Source: Centroscyllium fabricii (taxonomy: Eukaryota). Taken from it: a stretch of 64,000 bases of DNA. Every line of letters starts with the position of its first letter. The first letter of the stretch is position 1. Made by a program: the position numbers and the translations under genes. Positions 286-63,000 of this stretch are shown piece after piece. Location of the stretch: assembly GCA_051313645.2 (NCBI GenBank), contig JBNRSN020000001.1:260896001-260960000 (forward strand), in the 5' to 3' direction. Below the pieces are notes generated by a model. It saw only the letters and a list, made by a program, of their open reading frames with translations. It was not told where the DNA came from and ran no database searches.

Positions 286-985
286 CATTGGAATTTAGAA
301 GAATGAGAGGTGATCTTATTGAAACATATAAGATTCTGAGGGGGCTCGACAAGGCAGATGCAGAGAGGATGTTTCCCCTCATGGGGAAATCTAGAACTCG
401 GGGGCATTGTTCCAGAATAAAGCGTCGCCCTTTTAGAACTGAGATGAGGAGGAATTTCTTTTCTCAGAGGGTCATAAATTTGTGGCCCAGAGAGCCGTGG
501 GGGCTGGGTCATTAAATACATTTAAGGTGGAGATAGACAGTGTGACCGAAATAACGACCTCGTGGACGAGTAGTTAGAAGGGTGAAACAATACGGCTTTT
601 ATTCGCTAAATGGTGGACAGGCACCAGCTAGTCGACCGTCCCCAGGAATGGCTGGGGGATGGGAGACGGCCGCTTATATACCTCCTCCTGGGAGGGAGGA
701 GTCGCGGGCGGAGCCAGCATGCGCATGTCCAGGTAATCGCACAGCAGGTTATATACAACATAGATATAAGTACGATTACAGAGATACATAATGGAGTGGG
801 TATATACAATGGAAACAGTGGTTTACCACAGACAGATTTTTGCAAGATAATGGAGTGAAGGATTATGGGGAGCGGGCGGGGAAGTGGCTTTGAGCCCAAG
901 ATCAGCCATGATCTTATTGAATGGCGCAGCAGGCTCGAGGGGCCAAGTGGCCTATTCCTGCTCCTATTTCTTATGTTCTTACAGT
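286..985 (+). mobile_element. CR1 (HER1-like) LINE 3' end, split by a solo LTR
   Basis: SLEFRRMRGDLIETYKILRGLD...RNFFSQRV ORF2 C-terminus; CR1 tail gatcagccatgatcttattgaatggc...cctatttcttatgttctt. Confidence 0.85.
541..830 (-). mobile_element. Solo LTR related to the Gypsy element C LTR
   Basis: TG...CA ends, 5-bp TSD GACAG (536-540, 831-835); reverse complement closely matches LTR 35793-36092. Confidence 0.92.
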
Positions 986-7655: not shown

Positions 7656-8045
7656 TTACATGGGGGCCCCACAAGGCTGTGTGCTGAGCCCCCTCCTCTA
7701 CTCGCTCTTCACCCGCGTCTGTGCGGCTGTCCGCGGCTCCAACACGATCAAGTTTGCGGACGACACCACGGTAGTTGGCCAGATTGTGCTAATTGTGTAA
7801 ATACCACTGTAAATAGTTGATGGCACCTTGGTATTGTATTGTAGGCCAGGTCAGCCACACCCCTAACTCCTCCCCTCAGGTCGGAGCATATAGGTGAGGG
7901 CTGCCCTGCCCCCGCTCATTCTTCTCCTTGAACTCATCAGGAGACCAGCTCCATTGTTAGTTAATAAAAGCCTGTAGTTTAGGTAACTACTCGTCTTTGC
8001 GTTTTAATTGACGATACATCAATGTTATTAACTAAATTTTAAAAC

Positions 8046-11000
8046 ATGGAGAGTAACGCAGTGAAACCGGATCGCCTCCACATAAATCCTCAGGCACCCG
8101 ATGCTGCTAACGACTTCGAACACTGGTTTAGCGTGGTTGAGGCCTACATGAAGGCCGTAAAGGCTACGAGTGATGAGGACAAACTCCAGGTACTCTCATC
8201 ACGGATCAGCGGCCGGGTGTACTCTTTTATCCGCGGCCTCAAGACTTACTAGGAAGCGGCCAAGAAATTAAAGGACTGCTACATGTGCCCGGCCCATGTG
8301 GTCTATGCCAGGCATGTTCTGGCGACCAGAAGACAACGACTCGGTGAGTCAAATGAACAGTTTCTACTAGTGCTCCAAGCCCTCGCACGGGCCTGCGACT
8401 GCCAGGCAAGGACAGCGGAGGAAGAGGCGAATCTCCCAATCCGAGATGCCTATGTGGCTGGACTCAGGTCCAGCCAGGCCCGCCAGCGGCTGGTGGAGCA
8501 GGACACACTGTCGCTTGAGTCCGCGATAACGGTTTCTAATGCGGTGGACGGAGCGCTTCGAAAACTGGAGGCGTACGGAGATCACGGCTCCCACTGTACC
8601 CCTGACCCCTGGGTGACACAGCGACAGGCCGAGACCCCCACGATGGCAGCGGCGACTGCGAAGACACCGGCGGGGCACAGATGCTACTTCTGCGGCCAAG
8701 GAAAGCACCCGCGGGCGCAGTGCCCTGTGAAGAATGCGACCTGCGCGCGGTGCGCGAAGAAGGGGCACTACGCGAAGGTGTGCAAATCCAGCCCAGCCTC
8801 CACCTCCAGACCCAACAGCGCGGCCTGCGAGAACAGCGATGCCACTCCATGGCTCCAGGTACGGTGTTGCAGCACGACCCAGCAGCGGTCAGCCGGTGGT
8901 AAATCGCGAGCGCCTCAATCCCCTTTAACTGTACGGCGGAGGCCGGCCGCGCGCGCGGCACAGGTGCTGCCACCTCAAACGCGACCGCGACCGGCCATGT
9001 GCGACCCCCTGGTGCCGCCATCTTGTTCACCGTGTTCGGCCGCGTGCGAACCACGGGCGCCGCCATCTTATCCACAGCGGTCGGCCATGTGCGACCCGCC
9101 GCCGCCGCCATCTTGTCCACCGCTGTCGGCCGCATGCGAACCACGGGCGCCGCCATCTTATCCATAGCGGTCGGCCATGTGCGAGCCCCCGGCGCCGCCA
9201 TCTTGTCCACCGCGGTCGGCCGCGTGCGAACCACGGGCGCCGCCATCTTATCCACAGCGGTCGGCCACATGCGAACCACAGGCGCCGCCATCTTATCCAC
9301 CGGTCGGCCGCGTGCGAACCACGGGCGCCCCGCCATCTTCTCCACAGCAGTCGGACACGTGCGCATTGCCAGCGCTGCCATCTTCTGAGCGGCCATCTTG
9401 CCAACTGCCCCGGCCGGGGCCCCAGCAAGCGGAGGGCCCCCACTCACACACATACACTTCGGCCTCAGCCACCGTCGATCAGGCTAGGCCGCACACCTTG
9501 TCCAACTCCATGATGGGGATTAAGGTGGACGGGCACGCCACTAGCTGCCTGTTCGACACCGGTAGCACAGAGAGCTTTATACATCCCGACACAGTGCGGC
9601 GCTACGCACTGCAGACCCAGCCCACGCACTACCAAGTCTCCCTTGCCTCAAAGTCCCACACGGCGGACGTCACCGGCTACTGCAGCGTCACGCTCACGAT
9701 CAGGGACCGCATTTACCGCAACTTTTAAGTTGTACATACTCCAGCAGCTGTGCGCCCCAGTCTTACAGGGACTGGATTTCCAGTGTCACCTGAAGAGCGT
9801 GACGATGGATTTCGGTTGAACCCTGGCCCCCCTCACCGTCAGTAGCCGGGACAATCGCAACTTAACACGGAGCTCGACTTGCGGCCTGTCCACATTAAAA
9901 GTCGACCCCCCCTCACTGTTCACCAATCTCGACCCTAAATGCAAGCTCATTGCTACCAAAAGTCGGCGTTACAGTGCAGGGGACCGGGCGTTCATCAGGT
10001 CAGAGGTCGAGCGCATGCTGAAAGAAGGGATAATTGAGGCCAACACCAGCCCCGGGCGGGCCCAGGTCATGGTGGTTAAGACGGGCGAGAAACTGCGCAT
10101 GGTCATCGACTATAGCCAGACGATTAACCGCTACACCGGGCTCGACGCCTACGCCCTCCCCCGCATCTCGGATATGGTAAACTAGATCGCCCAGTACAAG
10201 GTCTTTTCCACAATCGACCTCAAGTCGGCGTATCACCAACTCCCCATGCGGAAATCCGACCGCCAGTACACCGCCTTCGAGGCGAACGGCCGGCTCTACC
10301 ACTTTCTCCGGGTCCCCTTCGGTGTGACCAACGGGGTGTCGGTGTTCCAGAGGGAGATGGACCGCATGGTTGACCAGAACGGGTTGCAGGCCACCTTCCC
10401 CTACTTGGACAACGTGACCATCTGCGGCCATGACCAGCAGGACCACGATGCCAACCTCGCCAAATTCCTGCACATGGTGAAACGGCTGGACCTAACATAC
10501 AATAAAGACAAGTGTGTCTTTAGTACGGATTGGCTCGCTATCCTCGGATACGTGGTGGAAAACGGAGTCCTCGGCCCCTACCCACAGCATATGCACCCCT
10601 TGCAAGAGCTGCCCTTACCTCACAACCCCAAAGCCCTGAGGAGATGTCTAGGGTTCTTTTCTTATTACGCGCAATGGGTCCCCCAGTACGCGGATAAGGC
10701 CAGACCTCTCCTCAAGGCCGACGTCTTCCCCCTCTCGGAAGAAGCCCAAACGGCATTCGCTCGGATCAAGGAAGACATCATCAAGGCGACCATGCACGTC
10801 GTTGATGAGTCCATTCCCTTCCAGGTGGAGAGTGACGCTTCGGACTTTGCCCTTGCCGCCACCCTGAACCAGGCAGGCAGGCCCATAGCGTTTTTCTCCC
10901 GGACCCTACAGGGACCCAAAACTCGCCACTCAGCGGTGGAAAAGGAGGCCCAGGCCATCGTGGAGGCAGTGCACTACTGGCGTCATTACCTGGCCGGTAA

Positions 11001-14156: not shown

Positions 14157-14169
14157 TGGTGACCCCGAC
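14157..14169 (+). promoter_or_regulatory. Primer binding site complementary to tRNA-Trp 3' end
   Basis: TGGTGACCCCGAC 1 nt after the 5' LTR of element B. Confidence 0.85.
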
Positions 14170-34210: not shown

Positions 34211-34671
34211 TACTAGCTTTATTTATTTAATTTAAATTCCCCAGCTGCCATGGTGGGATTTGAACTCATGACTCTGGATCATTAGTCCAGGCCTTCTGAA
34301 TTACGAGCCCAGTGACATTACCACTATGCTACCGTATCACAACCTCGAGAGTAACGATAAGCAACTTCACTGATAGCACCATAAAGAAAAGAAAAAATAA
34401 ATTTTGGATTCCAGGATCTACTTACTTGGGCGTTGTCTCCCAGGGTTTATGCTGTTAAATCCATTTTATGGGGGGTGGGTCCCAGCCGAAGGCTGATAGA
34501 CCCGAGCAAAAAAAACCCTGCAACCTTCATCGAGTAGTCGCAATGTTAGAAAAGGCTGCGCTGACCTTTTGAGGACAGCATCGGCAACATTTCAGCCGAT
34601 GCAATCAGTGTGGCAACCTTAGCTCTGGAGAGCAATCTTAACATGTTTGTTTTTTTCCTTGCATTTTTCAG

Positions 34672-35516: not shown

Positions 35517-35792
35517 CCCAGTATAGACCTGACGTTACGGGTTAGTGCCGCATCAGACAGTATTAGGCGGTTCTAAGTGCCAAGTCATAAAATGATCGAA
35601 CAATTGACATACAGAAAACTCTTGTTTAAACGGCACCTAACTAATTCTCTATTAACTGGCAAAATTCTCATGCCGAAAACAACACCTCAATAACTACTAG
35701 ATTGATTCCCGGGATGGCCGGACTGACATATCAAGAAAGACTGGATCAGCTGAACTTGTACTCTCTGGAGTTCAGAAGAATGAGGGGGTGAA

Positions 35793-38700
35793 TGTGGTAA
35801 ACCACTCTTTCCTGTATATATCCACCCTGTTATGTATATATTTGTATTACTGTAATCGTACTATTCTCCATGTTGTACCATAGCCCATTGTGTGCGATTA
35901 CCTGGACATGCCCATGCTGGCTCCGCCTGCGACTCCTCCCTCCCGGGAGGAGGTACATAAGCGGCCGTCTCCCATCCCCCTGCCATTCCTGGGGACGGTC
36001 GACTAGCTGGTGCATGTCCACATTTGGCGAATAAAAGCCACATTGTTTTACCCTCTTAACTACTCGTCCACGAGGTCGTTATTTCGGTCACAATTTTATT
36101 CGCTAAATTTGACGATGGACGCAATGCTCAAGCCAGCAACGTTCGAATTGGATCCCCGGACACCAGGCGCATCAAATACATTCTCGCACTGGTTCGACTG
36201 TTTTGATGCGTACATGAGAGCGAACGCAGCGGTCGTCAGGACCGAAGAAGACAAACGGCGGCTCCTCAACGCCCGGGTGGGCCCTCAGGTGTACTCCATG
36301 ATCGTAGACGCATCATCATACTTGGATGCAATCAGGATCCTCAAAGCGGAGTACAACCGGGCACCCAACATCGTCCACGCCAGACACATTCTGGCCACCA
36401 GAAAACAGCAACCCGGTGAGTCCAGCGTGGAATTTCTACGCGCGCTGAGAGTACTATCACGGGCCTGTGACTGCAGAGCGCAATCGGCCCAGGTCCATGT
36501 GGACAGTCTGATCAGAGACGCATACGTGACAGGCCTCAGGTCGGACTATATCAGACAAAGGCTGTTAGAATAGAACGGCCTTGACCTGCAGGCAACAGCG
36601 GACCTGGGCAACGCGCTGGATGTGGCATCACTACACTTGTCGTCATACTCCGGCAACTATACGGGCCCAGCCCCGACAACTTGGACAACGCCGGCACAAC
36701 GGCCGGCGGAAGAAATGATCGCAGCCGCCCACGCTAACACGGCAAAATGCTACTTCTGTGGGCAGCCTCAGCATCTGAGACGCAGCTGCCCGGCAAGAGA
36801 CGCGGCCTGCTCGAAATGTGGCAAAAAGGGACACTACGCTAAAGTCTGCAAGGCGACTGCAGCGCCAAAACCGAAACCGGGCAGTGCCGCGTGTGGGACA
36901 TGGGGGCAGCCATATTGGACTCAGCCATCCCCCACTCAGCTCACCGCGTGGCAGCAGACGCCATATTGGACCCAGCCACCCCCTCCGCAGTACACCACAT
37001 GGCGGCAGCCATCTTGGGACCAGGCCCTGGAGGACTTCTCTTCGGATCAAGAGGAATCGACCGATCCGATATTAGCATCAGTTACCTTGGATCAGAACAA
37101 GGCTCAACCACTCGGGCAGTCGATGATGCCGGTGGGAGTGAACGGACAAGACGTCGAGTGCCTCTTCGACAGCGGGAGCACGGTGAGTTTTGTCCATCCT
37201 GAAACAGTAAGGCGCCTCTCCCTTAAGGTTATGCCAGCGAGCCAAAAGATCTCAATGGCTTCCAAGTCGGAATCTGCGGACGTCTCCGGGCGTTGCGCAG
37301 TGGCTCTAACGGTATGGGGCGTGCACTTTAGTAACTTTAACTTTTTCGTGCTGCCGCAGCTCTGCGCTCCATTGTTATTGGGTCTGGACTTCCAGTGCCA
37401 TCTCCAGAGCGTTACCATGTCGTACGGTGGGCCCCTTCCCCCACTCACGGTCAGCAACCGCCGCTCGGCGCAGCACCCTCGGCGCGCTACCTGTGGCCTC
37501 TCGACCCTTAAGGTCGCCCCTCCCTCACTCTTTGCTAACCTCACCCCGGACTGCAAGCCCGTCGCCACCAAAAGTAGGCGCTACAGTGCTGGGGACATGG
37601 ACTTTATCAAGTCCGAGGTGAAGCGCCTCCTGAAGGAGGGGGTTATCGAGGCCAGTAATAGCCCCTGGAGGGCGCAGGTAGTGGTGGTGAAGACTGGAGC
37701 TAAGAACCGGATGGTAGTGGACTATAGCCAGACCATTAACCGGTTCACCCAGTTAGACGCATACCCCCTCCCCCGGATAGCGGACATGGTAAATCAGATC
37801 GCGCAGTTTCGGGTTTTCTCAACCATAGATCTGAAGTCCGCATATCGCCAGCTCCCCATTCGCCCAGAGGACCGTCTCTATACCGCTTTCGAGGCTGACG
37901 GTCGAATCTACCACTTCCTCAGGGTCCCGTTTGGCGTCACGAATGGGGTCTCGGTCTTCCAAAGGGAGATGGACCGAATGGTCGATCAGTACGGGCTGCG
38001 AGCCACTTTCCCGTACTTCGATAATGTGACCATCTGCGGCCACGATCAGCAGGACCATGACGCTAACCTCCAGAAATTTCTCCACACCGCCAAAACACTC
38101 AACCTGACCTATAACACAGAAAAATGTGTGTTCAGGACCACCCGCCTCGCCATCCTCGGCAGTGTTGTGGAGAATGGGGTCATCGGTCCCGACCCGGACC
38201 GCATGCGCCCCCTCCTGGAGCTCCCCCTCCCCCACTCCCCCAAGGCCCTTAAACGGTGCTTGGGTTTCTTTGCCTATTACGCCCAGTGGGTCCCCAATTA
38301 TGCGGACAAAGCTCGCCCACTGCTTAAATCAACCTCATTTCCCCTGTCCGCAGATGCCCGCGCGGCGTTCTGCGGCATTAAGGACGACATTGCAAAGGCA
38401 ACGATGCACGCTGTGGACGAGTCCGTCCCGTTCCAGGTAGAGAGCGATGCATCGGACTTTGCCCTGGCCGCCACCCTTAACCAGGCGGGCAGACCCGTGG
38501 CCTTCTTCTCACGTACCCTCCAGGGCCCCGAGACCCGTCACTCCTCAGTCGAGAAGGAGGCCCAGGCCATTGTTGAAGCAGTGCGTCACTGGAAGCACTA
38601 CCTGGCCGGCAAACGATTTACCCTGCTGACTGACCAACGCTCAGTCGCTTTTATGTTCAACAACAAAGAGCGGGGTAAAATCAAGAATGACAAGATACTG

Positions 38701-40426
38701 AGGTGGAGAATTGAGCTCTCCGCGTTCAATTATGATATCTTGTACCGGCCCGGGAAATTCAACGAACCCCCAGACGCCCTGTCCCGCGGTACCTGTGCCA
38801 GCGCACAGACAGACCGACTACAAACCCTGCACAATGACCTCTGCCACCCGGGGGTCACCAGGTTGGTTCACTTTGTGAAGTCCCGCAACCTCCCCAACTC
38901 CATCGAGGAGGTCAAGACCATGACCAGCAACTGCCAGGTCTGTGCGGAGTGCAAGCCGCACTTCTATTGGCCAGACCGGGCGCATCTGATCAAGGCCACC
39001 CGCCCCTTTGAACGACTCAGCGTCGATTTCAAAGGGCCCCTTCCCTCCGCCAACAGGAACGTGTACTTCCTTAACGTCATTGACGAGTACTCCCGCTTCC
39101 CCTTTGCCATCCCCTGCCCGGACATGACCTCCGCCACCGTCATCAAAGCCCTCCACAGCATCTTCTCTCTGTTCGGCTACCCCAGCTACATCCATAGCGA
39201 CCGGGGGGGCCTCCTTTATGAGTGACGAGCTGCGTCAGTTTCTGCTAGCCAAAGGCATCGCTACTAGCAGGACTACCAGCTATAACCCCCGGGGGAACGG
39301 ACAGGTAGAGAGGGAGAACGCCACTGTCTGGAAGGCCATCCTGTTAGCCCTACGGTCTAAAGGCCTCCCAGTCTCCCGCTGGCAGGACGTCCTCCTGAAG
39401 TGCTCCACTCCATCTGGTCCCTCCTTTGTACGGCCACTAATGCCACCCCTCAGGAGCGACTTTTTGCCTTCCCTAGGAAGTCGGCTTCCGGGACCTCGCT
39501 GCCATCGTGGCTACTATCCCCGGGACCAGTCCTACTCCGGAAGCATGTGAGGGGCCACAAGGCAGATCCCCTGGTCGAACGGGTCCACCTCCTGCACGCC
39601 AATCCCCAGTACGCCTACGTAGCGTACCCCGACGGGAGGGAGGACACCGTGTCCATCAAGGACCTGGTGCCAGCGGGAGCCCCCAAACCCAGCCCCGCCC
39701 AGCAGCCCGCACCCCCACGACGGCCAGCCACTCCACCCGGGCCACCGACGCCAAGGTACGCTCCGCGGCACGAGAATCCAGCACCACGGTTCGTCCACCC
39801 GGCACCTGTAGGCAGCACGGCATGGCCTCCAGCATGGCTCCACAGTACACGCCTCCTAGAGTCAGACGACGAGGGAGAGAGCGCGCCACCTACTGTCACC
39901 GCAAGGGCACCAACGAGGAATCAACCAACGCAACCGGCCATCGCTCGTCCACCGGCATCATCACCAATGGTGCAACCAACCCAACCGGCCATTCCACGAC
40001 CGCCGACACCACCAGCGGTGCGCCGATCAACCAGGATTACCAGGCCGCCTGAGCGACTTAATCTGTAAATTAAAAGAACTGTCGCGTTCACCCCGCCGGA
40101 CTTTTGTTTTAAAGAAGGGGTGAAATGTGGTAAACCACTCTTTCCTGTATATATCCACCCTGTTATGTATATATTTGTATTACTGTAATCGTACTATTCT
40201 CCATGTTGTACCATAGCCCATTGTGTGCGATTACCTGGACATGCCCATGCTGGCTCCGCCTGCGACTCCTCCCTCCCGCGAGGAGGTACATAAGCGGCCG
40301 TCTCCCATCCCCCCTGCCATTCCTGGGGACGGCCGACTAGCTGGTGCATGTCCACCTTTAGCGAATAAAAGCCATATTGTTTTACCCTCTTAACTTCTCG
40401 TCCACGAGGTCGTTATTTTGGTCACA
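35793..40426 (+). mobile_element. Ty3/Gypsy element C (same lineage as A), full length, in a STAG2-like intron, inserted in a CR1
   Basis: LTRs 35793-36092 and 40126-40426, TSD GGGGG (35784-35788, 40427-40431), PPT aaagaaggggtgaaa. Confidence 0.96.
36115..40068 (+). pseudogene. gag-pol of element C (one TAG at 36571-36573, frameshifts near 39205 and 39397)
   Basis: 867-aa open stretch with two CCHC, LFDSGS, RT YFDN (38014-38025), RNase H, integrase. Confidence 0.93.
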
Positions 40427-60042: not shown

Positions 60043-63000
60043 TGTGGTGATATTGGCTATAACACCAACTATGTGTATGTACATGCCTTAGGGCGTGTCT
60101 ACTCTTGCCCAGCCAGACTTGGGAGACCTGTACCTGGAGGACCTCGGGTAGGCCACGCCTCTGACCCTGGGGGTATAAAGGTCAGCACTCGTGGGTTCTG
60201 ACCTCCTCTCTACTGTACTGTACTAACGATACCTGTGATCCCTTACGCTTGTTCTAAGTTTATTAAAGCCTATGTTAACTCGCTCTCTGACTCAAGTAAT
60301 TGATGGTATCAATTTAATAAACTTAGATCGTCGCTAAAATCCAAAAATGGACCGAATTCTGGCTGTCCCGATCTTGGAAATTGATGCGACTGCTCCCGAT
60401 GCCGAACGCCGGTATAAACACTGGGAACAACAGCTAAGGAGCTATATCGACGAAGTGAAAGAGACCGCTTCAACTGATCAGCAGAAGAGCCGAATTCTAC
60501 ACTGCAGAATCAGTGCTGACCATTACCACCTCATCGAAGGGGAGTCAGATTACGAACAGGCCATGAAGAAGCTGAAAGAACACTTTGTGCCAGCAGCCAA
60601 CGCTGTTCACTTAAGGCACTTGTTGACTCAGAGGGCCCAGAGCGCCGAGGAACCGGGCGCCAAATTCGTGAAAGAAATTTGTGCGCTGACCCGAGATTGC
60701 GCCCCTGGCCCCCTGACGGCGGACGAACACTACAACGAACTGGCACTGGACGCTCTGGTAAGAGGGGTATACTCCCCATATATCAGGGCCCGACTGCTAG
60801 AACGGGATGAGCTAACGTTAAAAGAAGCAGCCTCCCTGATTGTAAATCTGGACAATGCAGATCGGAGATCCACCACGTATGGCTAACCAAGCGCGCCTAC
60901 GTGGGCATCCCCAGCCCCAACTCCTACCCCAGCGCTAACGGCAGCGGCAGGAAGAAGCAGGCCTGAAACCAACCAAAAGTGTTTCTTTTGCGGAAAAGCT
61001 AGGCACTCTAGACTGCGCTGCCCAGCCAAAGATGCTACGTGCTCGGGGTGTGGAAAGAAGGGGCACTATGCCGCGATGTGCCGCGCAACAGGGCAGAAAA
61101 AGAAGGCAGCCCCCATCTGCAGCGGAGCGAGAGCGGCACCACGTTCCTACTACACGGAGGTAGATGACCGCGAGGGAGCACCACGAGGCGGCGGCCATCT
61201 TGAGGCCACAGCTAGGAGGAGCGGCCATCTTAGTTCATTACCACGAGGCAGCGGCCATTTTGAGGCCACAGCTAGGAGGAGCGGCCATCTTAGTTTATCA
61301 CCACGAGGCAGCGGCCATTTTGAGAGTCTTCGACTTGACTCCGACCCCGAATATTCGGATGAAGACGACTCATCAACCGTGCTGGCGTCCATCACTTTGG
61401 ACCAATCAAAACCCCATGAACTGCAGAAATCAATGATGGACGTCCAGGTAAACGGACAAAACTGTAACTGTTTATTTGATACGGGTAGTACTGATAGTTT
61501 TATTTCCCCCGAGACTGCTGACCGTCTTCACCTGTCGATCCGCCCCTGTTTAAAACGCATCGCCTTGGCGGCGGACTCAGAATCGGCGCAGGCCGTGGGG
61601 TGTTGCGTAGTATCACTTGTAGTTCGCGGGGTAAAATACTGTAATTTTAAACTGTTTGTGTTACCCCACTTGTGCGCCCCTGTGTTATTGGGGCTCGATT
61701 TCCAGAGCCACCTGCAGAGTGTCACCTTGGCATACGGCGGCCCTCTCCCACCCCTGACGGTCGAGTCGAGTACCCCCCGTGAGCGCCCGCTTTGTGGGCT
61801 CACCACTTTACGGATCTCACCCCCGAAACTGTTCGCGAACCTCACGCCGGACTGCGCACCGATTGCCTCAAAGAGCAGGCGGTATAGTGCTGCAGACCGG
61901 GCGTTTATTGGCACCGAGGTGAAGCGACTGTTGGCAGAGGGGGTGATTGAAGCCAGCCGCAGCCCCTGGAGGGCCCAAGTAGTAGTGGTAAAGACGGGGG
62001 AGAAGAACAGGATGGTGGTCGACTACAGTCAGACCATAAACCGGTTTACACTCCTCGATGCGTACCCCCTTCCCCGGATCTCGGACATGGTAAATGAAAT
62101 TGCCCAATACAAAGTCTATTCGACTATAGACCTTAAAGCGGCATATCACCAGGTCCCAATCCTCAGAGAGGAGCGCCCCTATACCGCTTTCGAAGCGGAT
62201 GGTCGCCTCTATCAGTTCCTTCGGGTTCCCTTCGGAGTGACGAACGGAGTGTCCGTCTTCCAGAGGGAAATGGATAGAATGGTAGACGAACACGGGCTCA
62301 GGGCCACCTTTCCCTATCTAGATAACGTCACTATCTGCGGCCACTCGGACGAGGACCACGACGAGAACCTCGCTAAATTTTTGAAAACAGCCAAATCCCT
62401 GAATTTGACCTACAACAAAGAAAAATGTGTTTTCCGCACCAGACGCCTGGCTATTTTGGGCTGTGTGGTGGAAAACGGGTTAATCGGCCCGGACCCTGAC
62501 CGAATGCGCCCGCTGATTGAGTATCCCCTTCCCAAGACACCCAAAGCTCTAAAGCGGTGCATGGGGCTGTTCGCGTATTACGCGCAGTGGGTCCCGAAAT
62601 TTGCGGACAAAGCCCGGCCTCTGATGCGGGCCACTGTTTTTCCCCTGTCGGCAGCGGCGCTAACGGCTTTTAAGCAACTTAAAGCCGATATAGTAAAAGC
62701 TACAATGTCCGCCATTGATGAGGACGTGCCTTTCCAAGTGGAGAGCGACGCGTCCGACTTCGCCCTGGCGGCGACCCTGAACCAAGCAGGCAGACCCGTT
62801 GCCTTCTTTTCCCGTACCCTCTCGGGCTCGGAAGCACGGCGTTCCTCCGTGGAAAAAGAGGCCCAAGCCATTATCGAAGCGGTGCGCCACTGGAGACACT
62901 ACCTGGCCGGTAGAAAATTTACCCTGCTCACCGATCAGAGGTCGGTAGCATTTATGTTTAGTAACACACAGCGGGGAAAAATTAAGAACGATAAGATCTT

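Follow-up and report, generated by a model that had tools for sequence, protein, structure and literature searches.

A helix between R and a site behind the 5' LTR points to self-primed reverse transcription in a clade of animal Gypsy retrotransposons

How does a retrotransposon that carries no site for a tRNA primer begin reverse transcription? For element C, a Ty3/gypsy element in the stretch of Centroscyllium fabricii DNA analysed here (the window, 64,000 nt), the likely answer is that a ~52-base segment from the 5' end of the element's own transcript, ending at the poly(A) hexamer, serves as primer. We read this segment as a self-primer because of the position of the slot behind the 5' LTR with which it pairs, the co-variation of slot and R, the lack of a tRNA site, and genomic relics that run across the LTR end and a spacer A into a reversed copy of R.

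Element C is assigned to the Ty3/gypsy LTR retrotransposons by its TG...CA LTRs, its target-site duplication, its polypurine tract and the domain order PR-RT-RH-IN. The 300-bp 5' LTR (35793-36092, on the plus strand like the rest of the element) shares 97% identity, with 8 differences, with the 3' LTR (40126-40426), which is preceded by the polypurine tract. The gag-pol frame (36115-40068) encodes zinc knuckles, protease, reverse transcriptase (RT), RNase H and integrase, but is that of a dead copy, interrupted by a stop within gag and by an integrase frameshift; neither a chromodomain nor an env was found for the element in the reading frames of the window. GGGGG flanks it on either side. Between this duplication and the 5' LTR, at 35789-35792, sits an extra TGAA, the end of the polypurine tract, and the same is seen at locus L295; it is possibly the trace of an incompletely removed plus-strand primer, a failure that has been reported for Tf1.

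Four further elements of the window serve for comparison: a solo LTR of a related subfamily (541-830, minus strand, with CTGTC at either flank), elements A and E, which have the same architecture as C, and element B, a control from another Gypsy lineage, which we take to be CsRN1 with a tRNA-Trp site. The site of B (14157-14169, plus strand) is of the TGG type and forms no helix with its own LTR, the best match being 9/13. Rfam returned nothing over 35700-36400 at E-values up to 1. A 45-nt tandem repeat in 8 copies (8942-9392) lies within the gag-protease junction of element A, and ARAGORN calls a tRNA-Thr-like sequence, perhaps the head of a SINE, at 34244-34339 on the minus strand.

The initial annotation had proposed an LTR:PBS helix in element C, and this helix is confirmed as a real feature of both the family and the clade. 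The 14-mer TTTTATTCGCTAAA (36094-36107) is, as annotated, the exact reverse complement of 40357-40370 in the 3' LTR and of 597-610, the R arm of the minus-strand solo LTR; within the window these are its sole exact complements. It starts one base past the terminal CA of the LTR, where a primer-binding site is expected, and pairs with the element's own R instead of a tRNA 3' end. The intervening spacer base at 36093 is A in 23/23 family representatives. Its partner in the 5' LTR, the R arm at 36023-36036, contains AATAAA (36030-36035) and lies at a distance of 56 nt from the site, while the R arm of the 3' LTR has no downstream partner. When the leader is folded from 35985, the helix is predicted to form, with probabilities of 0.94-1.00 for 13/14 pairs and 0.41 for the outermost, in a fold with z = -2.5 (3/200 shuffles). 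The sequence of the stem varies among element A (7957-8035, plus strand; R arm 7957-7969, site 8023-8035, one base decayed), element C and element E (60253-60327, plus strand; 15 bp, in which TTTAAT matches the hexamer ATTAAA), yet it stays paired.

What did not hold up was the suggestion of a selected, wobble-preserving change in the 5' arm; priming, for its part, was absent from the roles that had been considered. An A>G that leaves a G-U pair is indeed present at 36026. However, this G is private to the 5' LTR of element C (1/54 distinct family-C junctions), the 3' LTR has A, and the change is one of the 8 differences between two LTRs that, like any LTR pair, were identical when inserted. 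The complement is present family-wide, 42 of the 54 junctions pairing 14/14. Among the 12 imperfect ones, 3 differ by G-U only and 9 contain a pair-breaking change, and 8 of the 14 transitions that the R arm could undergo would still pair as G-U. Given these two counts, the A in the 3' LTR and the dead state of the copy, the change is no sign of selection; it is neutral decay. Compensated variants do occur within the 54 junctions, namely nine of the CA:TG type and one transversion pair.

How general is the pairing? We assembled 42 elements, of which 7 come from 464 kb surrounding the window and 35 from contigs belonging to other animals (89 loci fetched, 41 of them reaching the start of gag, 6 of these without a readable 5' junction), and found that in 35 of the 42 the slot forms 10-19 uninterrupted Watson-Crick pairs with the element's own LTR. 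Twenty-three family representatives were chosen, each a well-preserved copy, omitting L112 and L115 at contig ends and the decayed L142 and L154. They carry 23 different 13-mer sites, of which 20, under one fixed rule, pair 13/13 with their own LTR; the same pairing to another family's LTR occurs in 0/506 cross-family pairs, placing the helix far beyond chance. A TGG at the start of the site, and with it the TGG-type site shared between families that marks tRNA-primed elements, was found in none of the 23. Internal tRNA fragments as primers are excluded solely because the site sequences vary between families.

Where the helix is clear, in 22 representatives, TAAA or TAAAA closes the R arm, and RCC almost always comes next. 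The arm finishes with AATAAA or ATTAAA in 17 of them and with GTTAAA, TTTAAA or GATAAA in 5, and 4 families leave the AATAAA/ATTAAA hexamer in the loop. The LTR end, judged independently from the 3' LTR where available, mostly agrees within 0-3 bases. As to the three-duplex 'pretzel' that surrounds the site in the Tf1/sushi group, an RCC..GGY stem just past the arm is predicted, by eye, in about half of the 23 loops; pairing of upstream R with the start of gag is predicted for C alone.

The closest named homologues of element C come from rays and catsharks (81-84%), then from corals, anemones and Trichinella (60-63%), and viral contigs contained no relatives. In an RT tree built without Tf1/sushi rows and subject to long-branch warnings, 25 rows of the clade form a group (100/99) to which none of the 8 other Gypsy rows belongs. 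At the RT active site, 92/120 homologues have YxDN instead of YxDD, as does element C (~37990-38001), and families bearing it have been recently active despite the motif; a search of the open literature (PMC, bioRxiv) for this motif gave unrelated papers only and no name for the clade. A chromodomain was found in 0/20 relatives by Pfam scan, and none is listed among the 120 homologues. Loci L183 and L185-L187 are animal retrotransposons whose contigs are filed under bacterial genomes, a sign that these bins are contaminated with host DNA.

Where would the primer begin and end? A motif scan places a TATA-like box (TATATAAG in the solo LTR) at 35954-35961 on the plus strand, 31 nt upstream of an initiator A at 35985 (CCA+1TTC), and the spacing is equal in element A (7887, 7918). 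We infer a start at 35985 because of this spacing of TATA box and initiator, which is matched by the end points of the relics described below; the prediction was set down before the larger relic sets were collected. From the initiator A to the end of AATAAAA, the predicted self-primer would span 52 nt (35985-36036, plus strand), and in A-like subfamilies the initiator lies 51-53 nt upstream of the arm end. The paired arm begins 38 nt past the predicted start, leaving 38 primer bases unpaired. The R arm is thus predicted to lie at the 3' end of a piece of ~52 nt, whereas in Tf1 it forms the 5' end of the RNA.

Copies of this primer are present in the genome behind the LTR. A neutral family-C pattern, the junction followed by two bases other than TT, separated 9 from 1863 ordinary copies among 1872 exact junctions, and 9/9 continue as reverse R; in these relics, LTR and R copy have decayed independently. 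The same type of search in family E gave 6/7. Wider patterns returned 370 C-like and 445 A-like matches, the reversed pattern 0. We analysed 61 relics, comprising the first-listed 30 of each of the two wider sets and L197. Seventeen of them extend to the LTR start, 3 of these continuing into the polypurine tract, and 44 end inside the LTR. Twenty of the 44 interior ends fall within -1 to +2 of the initiator A, 11 exactly on it, with different sequence following each; the clustering has a binomial p of 6e-21 against a uniform distribution over 163 positions and of 1.5e-9 over 31. Another 8 lie beyond the predicted start and 12 fall 10-17 nt short of it. Among the six relics of family E none stops at the start site: 5 reach the LTR start and 1 passes the polypurine tract, so that 4 relics in all pass U3 into the tract.

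A reciprocal search, for R starting exactly at the initiator A, gave 41 matches, and 22 of the 30 examined read as R + T + reverse U5, the joint of primer and strong-stop DNA; they represent ~19 distinct events, 3 of which are common to the set of 61. One relic consists of a 3' LTR trailed by an R copy. Among nine relics with flanks, 5-bp target-site duplications are perfect in 3, carry one mismatch in 1, are doubtful in 1 and not visible in 4. Because such duplications enclose them, the relics arose before integration, and their sequences indicate reverse transcription as the process that made them, with a template RNA beginning at the predicted start.

Several features of the relics admit other routes. 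Those running through U3 need a second jump or a fold-back, and occasional priming or templating by the RNA 3' end would also explain them. Start-site relics could also come about if plus-strand DNA paired by mistake with the 5' end of another RNA molecule that is uncut; this route still needs a primer matching each family's R. The fate of 38 unpaired primer bases in plus-strand transfer and the ends 10-17 nt short sit outside the self-primer account and count against it. A cap-templated extra C at the exact ends was considered and is unconvincing (5/11), G being rare before the start. One relic pattern matched ordinary subfamilies (3574 matches), and 30 of its loci were reused as an LTR panel.

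The survey also brought up some unusual copies. At L352, L353, L370, L366, L345 and L266, a full 52-nt primer copy stands between the LTR and a normal leader and gag start, creating a perfect hairpin of 52 bp; three of these copies have one junction in common and may be duplicated or replicated. L316 and L317 are LTRs with the R arm deleted, the right break lying exactly at the predicted cut. A repeat ending in ..CATT is repeatedly joined at fixed LTR points, 3 nt past the helix in A-like and at the start site in C-like copies (L326-L328, L334, L335, L337; L357, L360, L361, L368), and is possibly an element with a target preference.

How could the predicted primer work? The leader would fold so that the 5' R arm pairs with the site behind the LTR, and a cut at AAUAAAA|GCC, suggested by the register, would yield the 3'-OH, RNase H being a candidate for the cutter by analogy with Tf1. 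A cut directly after AAUAAAA is weakly supported by fragment ends: 4/20 truncated LTRs start within -3 to +2 of it, and fragments starting exactly there number 5 among A-like copies (with a boundary there in 5/5) and 1 among C-like ones, against 44 for a +3 control, which is confounded, as the 20/44 read are mostly insertions, slippages and small deletions. RT would then copy the spacer A and continue through U5 as far as the cut; the first (minus-strand) jump would rely on the short sequence that separates the cut from the 3' poly(A) site. Relics could originate when plus-strand synthesis crosses the LTR end into the R primer. As a side effect, the 5' poly(A) signal would be concealed in the helix and the 3' signal left accessible: the hexamer has a predicted probability of being unpaired of 0.01 in the 5' context and 0.70 in the 3' context, with the same direction in 10/10 other elements folded.

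Could the primer instead be supplied in trans? R-only transcripts, polyadenylated early at the 5' LTR or at a solo LTR and trimmed to the helix edge, might prime a genomic RNA that stays uncut. Solo LTRs of a tapeworm TRIM are reported to give such transcripts (PMC4558846), which offers a precedent; the 5' end would likewise coincide with the start site, 17/22 clear-helix representatives have the poly(A) hexamer at the end of the arm, and the cut site is not firmly supported. However, the cis helix is predicted to form immediately in the nascent leader, and mis-jumped strong-stop DNA should start at the start site, where 0/30 fragments combine a normal LTR with the element's own internal sequence; a few fragments start at the predicted cut instead. 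We consider a trans primer unlikely. Pairing of the site with the 3' R, which the initial annotation had offered as an alternative role, is possible by sequence, since the 3' arm pairs equally well (predicted energies of -14.5 and -14.2 kcal/mol for the 3' and 5' arms). A trimmed RNA 3' end might then prime, or the end-to-end pairing might merely aid strand transfer, and the 17/61 relics that cross U3, as well as the 4 (3 of these and 1 of family E) that reach the polypurine tract and need a template with the RNA 3' part, would be accommodated. Yet a primer from the 3' end has U3 upstream and no reason to stop at the start, where 20/44 interior ends lie and beyond which only 8 extend, most copies stopping at or before the predicted RNA 5' end, and the 5' arm is just 56 nt away. 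This poorer fit makes circularisation improbable, more so than a trans primer.

Slightly lower still do we rate the idea that the helix solely masks the 5' poly(A) signal while some other RNA primes. The polyA hairpin of HIV-1 (PMC2645353) is a precedent, and in 11/11 elements folded the hexamer is predicted to be buried in the 5' context and mostly open in the 3' context. But masking has no need for an arm that begins exactly one base past the CA of the LTR, 5/22 arms lack AATAAA/ATTAAA, 4 families leave such a hexamer in the loop, any alternative primer would have to change along with each family's R, and the relics are left unexplained. Masking cannot be the sole role of the helix; as a second function, suggested by the predicted folds, it is possible, if somewhat short of an even chance. 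This leaves the view that erroneous template switching at a chromosomal inverted repeat produced the extended copies and that they are uninformative on priming. A 14-bp inverted repeat could seed a fold-back, and the copies reaching the LTR start fit a fold-back of DNA, but target-site duplications surround whole rearranged molecules, DNA has no end at the transcription start, and LTR and copy decayed independently. The duplications and the start-site end points largely refute this view, which we regard as barely credible. The most likely reading is self-priming in cis.

To our knowledge, experimental proof of self-priming exists for fission-yeast Tf1 only, and the trait is regarded as a mark of the Tf1/sushi group. 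The present clade is very abundant in this genome, where family C alone accounts for the 1863 ordinary junctions, and has relatives in rays, catsharks, corals, anemones and a nematode. If the self-primer reading is true, a large animal Gypsy clade needs no tRNA and would escape silencing by tRNA fragments, its primer would be about five times the length of that of Tf1, and the same helix may solve the problem of telling the 5' from the 3' poly(A) signal. The relics provide a means of mapping primers and start sites from genome sequence alone, and genome-wide mapping of end points together with target-site evidence for primer relics is what is new here. More tentatively, and with less confidence than in the second function alone, we may be looking at an independently invented, animal-wide form of tRNA-free priming in a clade of chromodomain-less Gypsy elements, in which a capped ~52-nt primer is delimited by the very helix that hides the 5' poly(A) signal. 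Processing of the 3' end would then be coupled to the onset of reverse transcription, and the dead-end products in the genome would map primer and start at single-base resolution.

How does this compare with known systems? An earlier description of the helix was not found in open-licence PMC and bioRxiv, the scope of our search. In HIV-1, the polyA hairpin holds AAUAAA in its stem and is reported to repress 5' polyadenylation (PMC2645353). Both ends of the HIV-1 RNA carry that hairpin, which is contained entirely within R and has no relation to the tRNA primer. In the helix described here, by contrast, the partner arm serves as the primer site and occurs behind the 5' LTR alone. The Saci2/lennie elements of flatworms are likewise compact Gypsy elements with a single ORF, and their site is described as differing from family to family (PMC12471100); they are reported to differ in being tRNA-primed and in having 4-bp duplications. 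For the plant TAR-lineage copia elements Houba and Osr-1 and for Tcn1, self-priming has been predicted from site-LTR complementarity (PMC6317226). This complementarity is shared with the present clade, while the elements belong to another superfamily or lineage, with plants as hosts, and the case made in that source is one of prediction alone.

Closest in mechanism are the self-primed Ty3/gypsy elements Tf1/Tf2 of S. pombe, Tj1 and the Tf1/sushi chromoviruses, as reported in PMC7175516, PMC4600332, PMC11042837 and bioRxiv 10.1101/2022.12.06.519325. As in Tf1, there is no tRNA site, the slot that follows the 5' LTR is complementary to the transcript of the same element and pairs with its R, and a cut must free a 3'-OH, a step for which RNase H is reported as the cutter of Tf1 RNA (PMC7175516). 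That the primer comes from the RNA 5' end is indicated here indirectly, by the end points of the relics. The cDNA of Tf1 is reported to keep a single-stranded copy of the self-primer (PMC11042837), and a primer copy that can likewise remain at the cDNA end is seen here as genomic relics. Unlike in Tf1, where the first 11 bases all pair according to these accounts, the paired 13-19 bases would close a ~52-nt piece whose 3' end is the poly(A) hexamer; and unlike in Tf1/sushi, a chromodomain is absent, the RT motif is mostly YxDN and both the cut and its enzyme are so far predictions. The clade would thus work like Tf1 while departing from two features that define the Tf1/sushi group, the 11-base 5' primer and the chromodomain.
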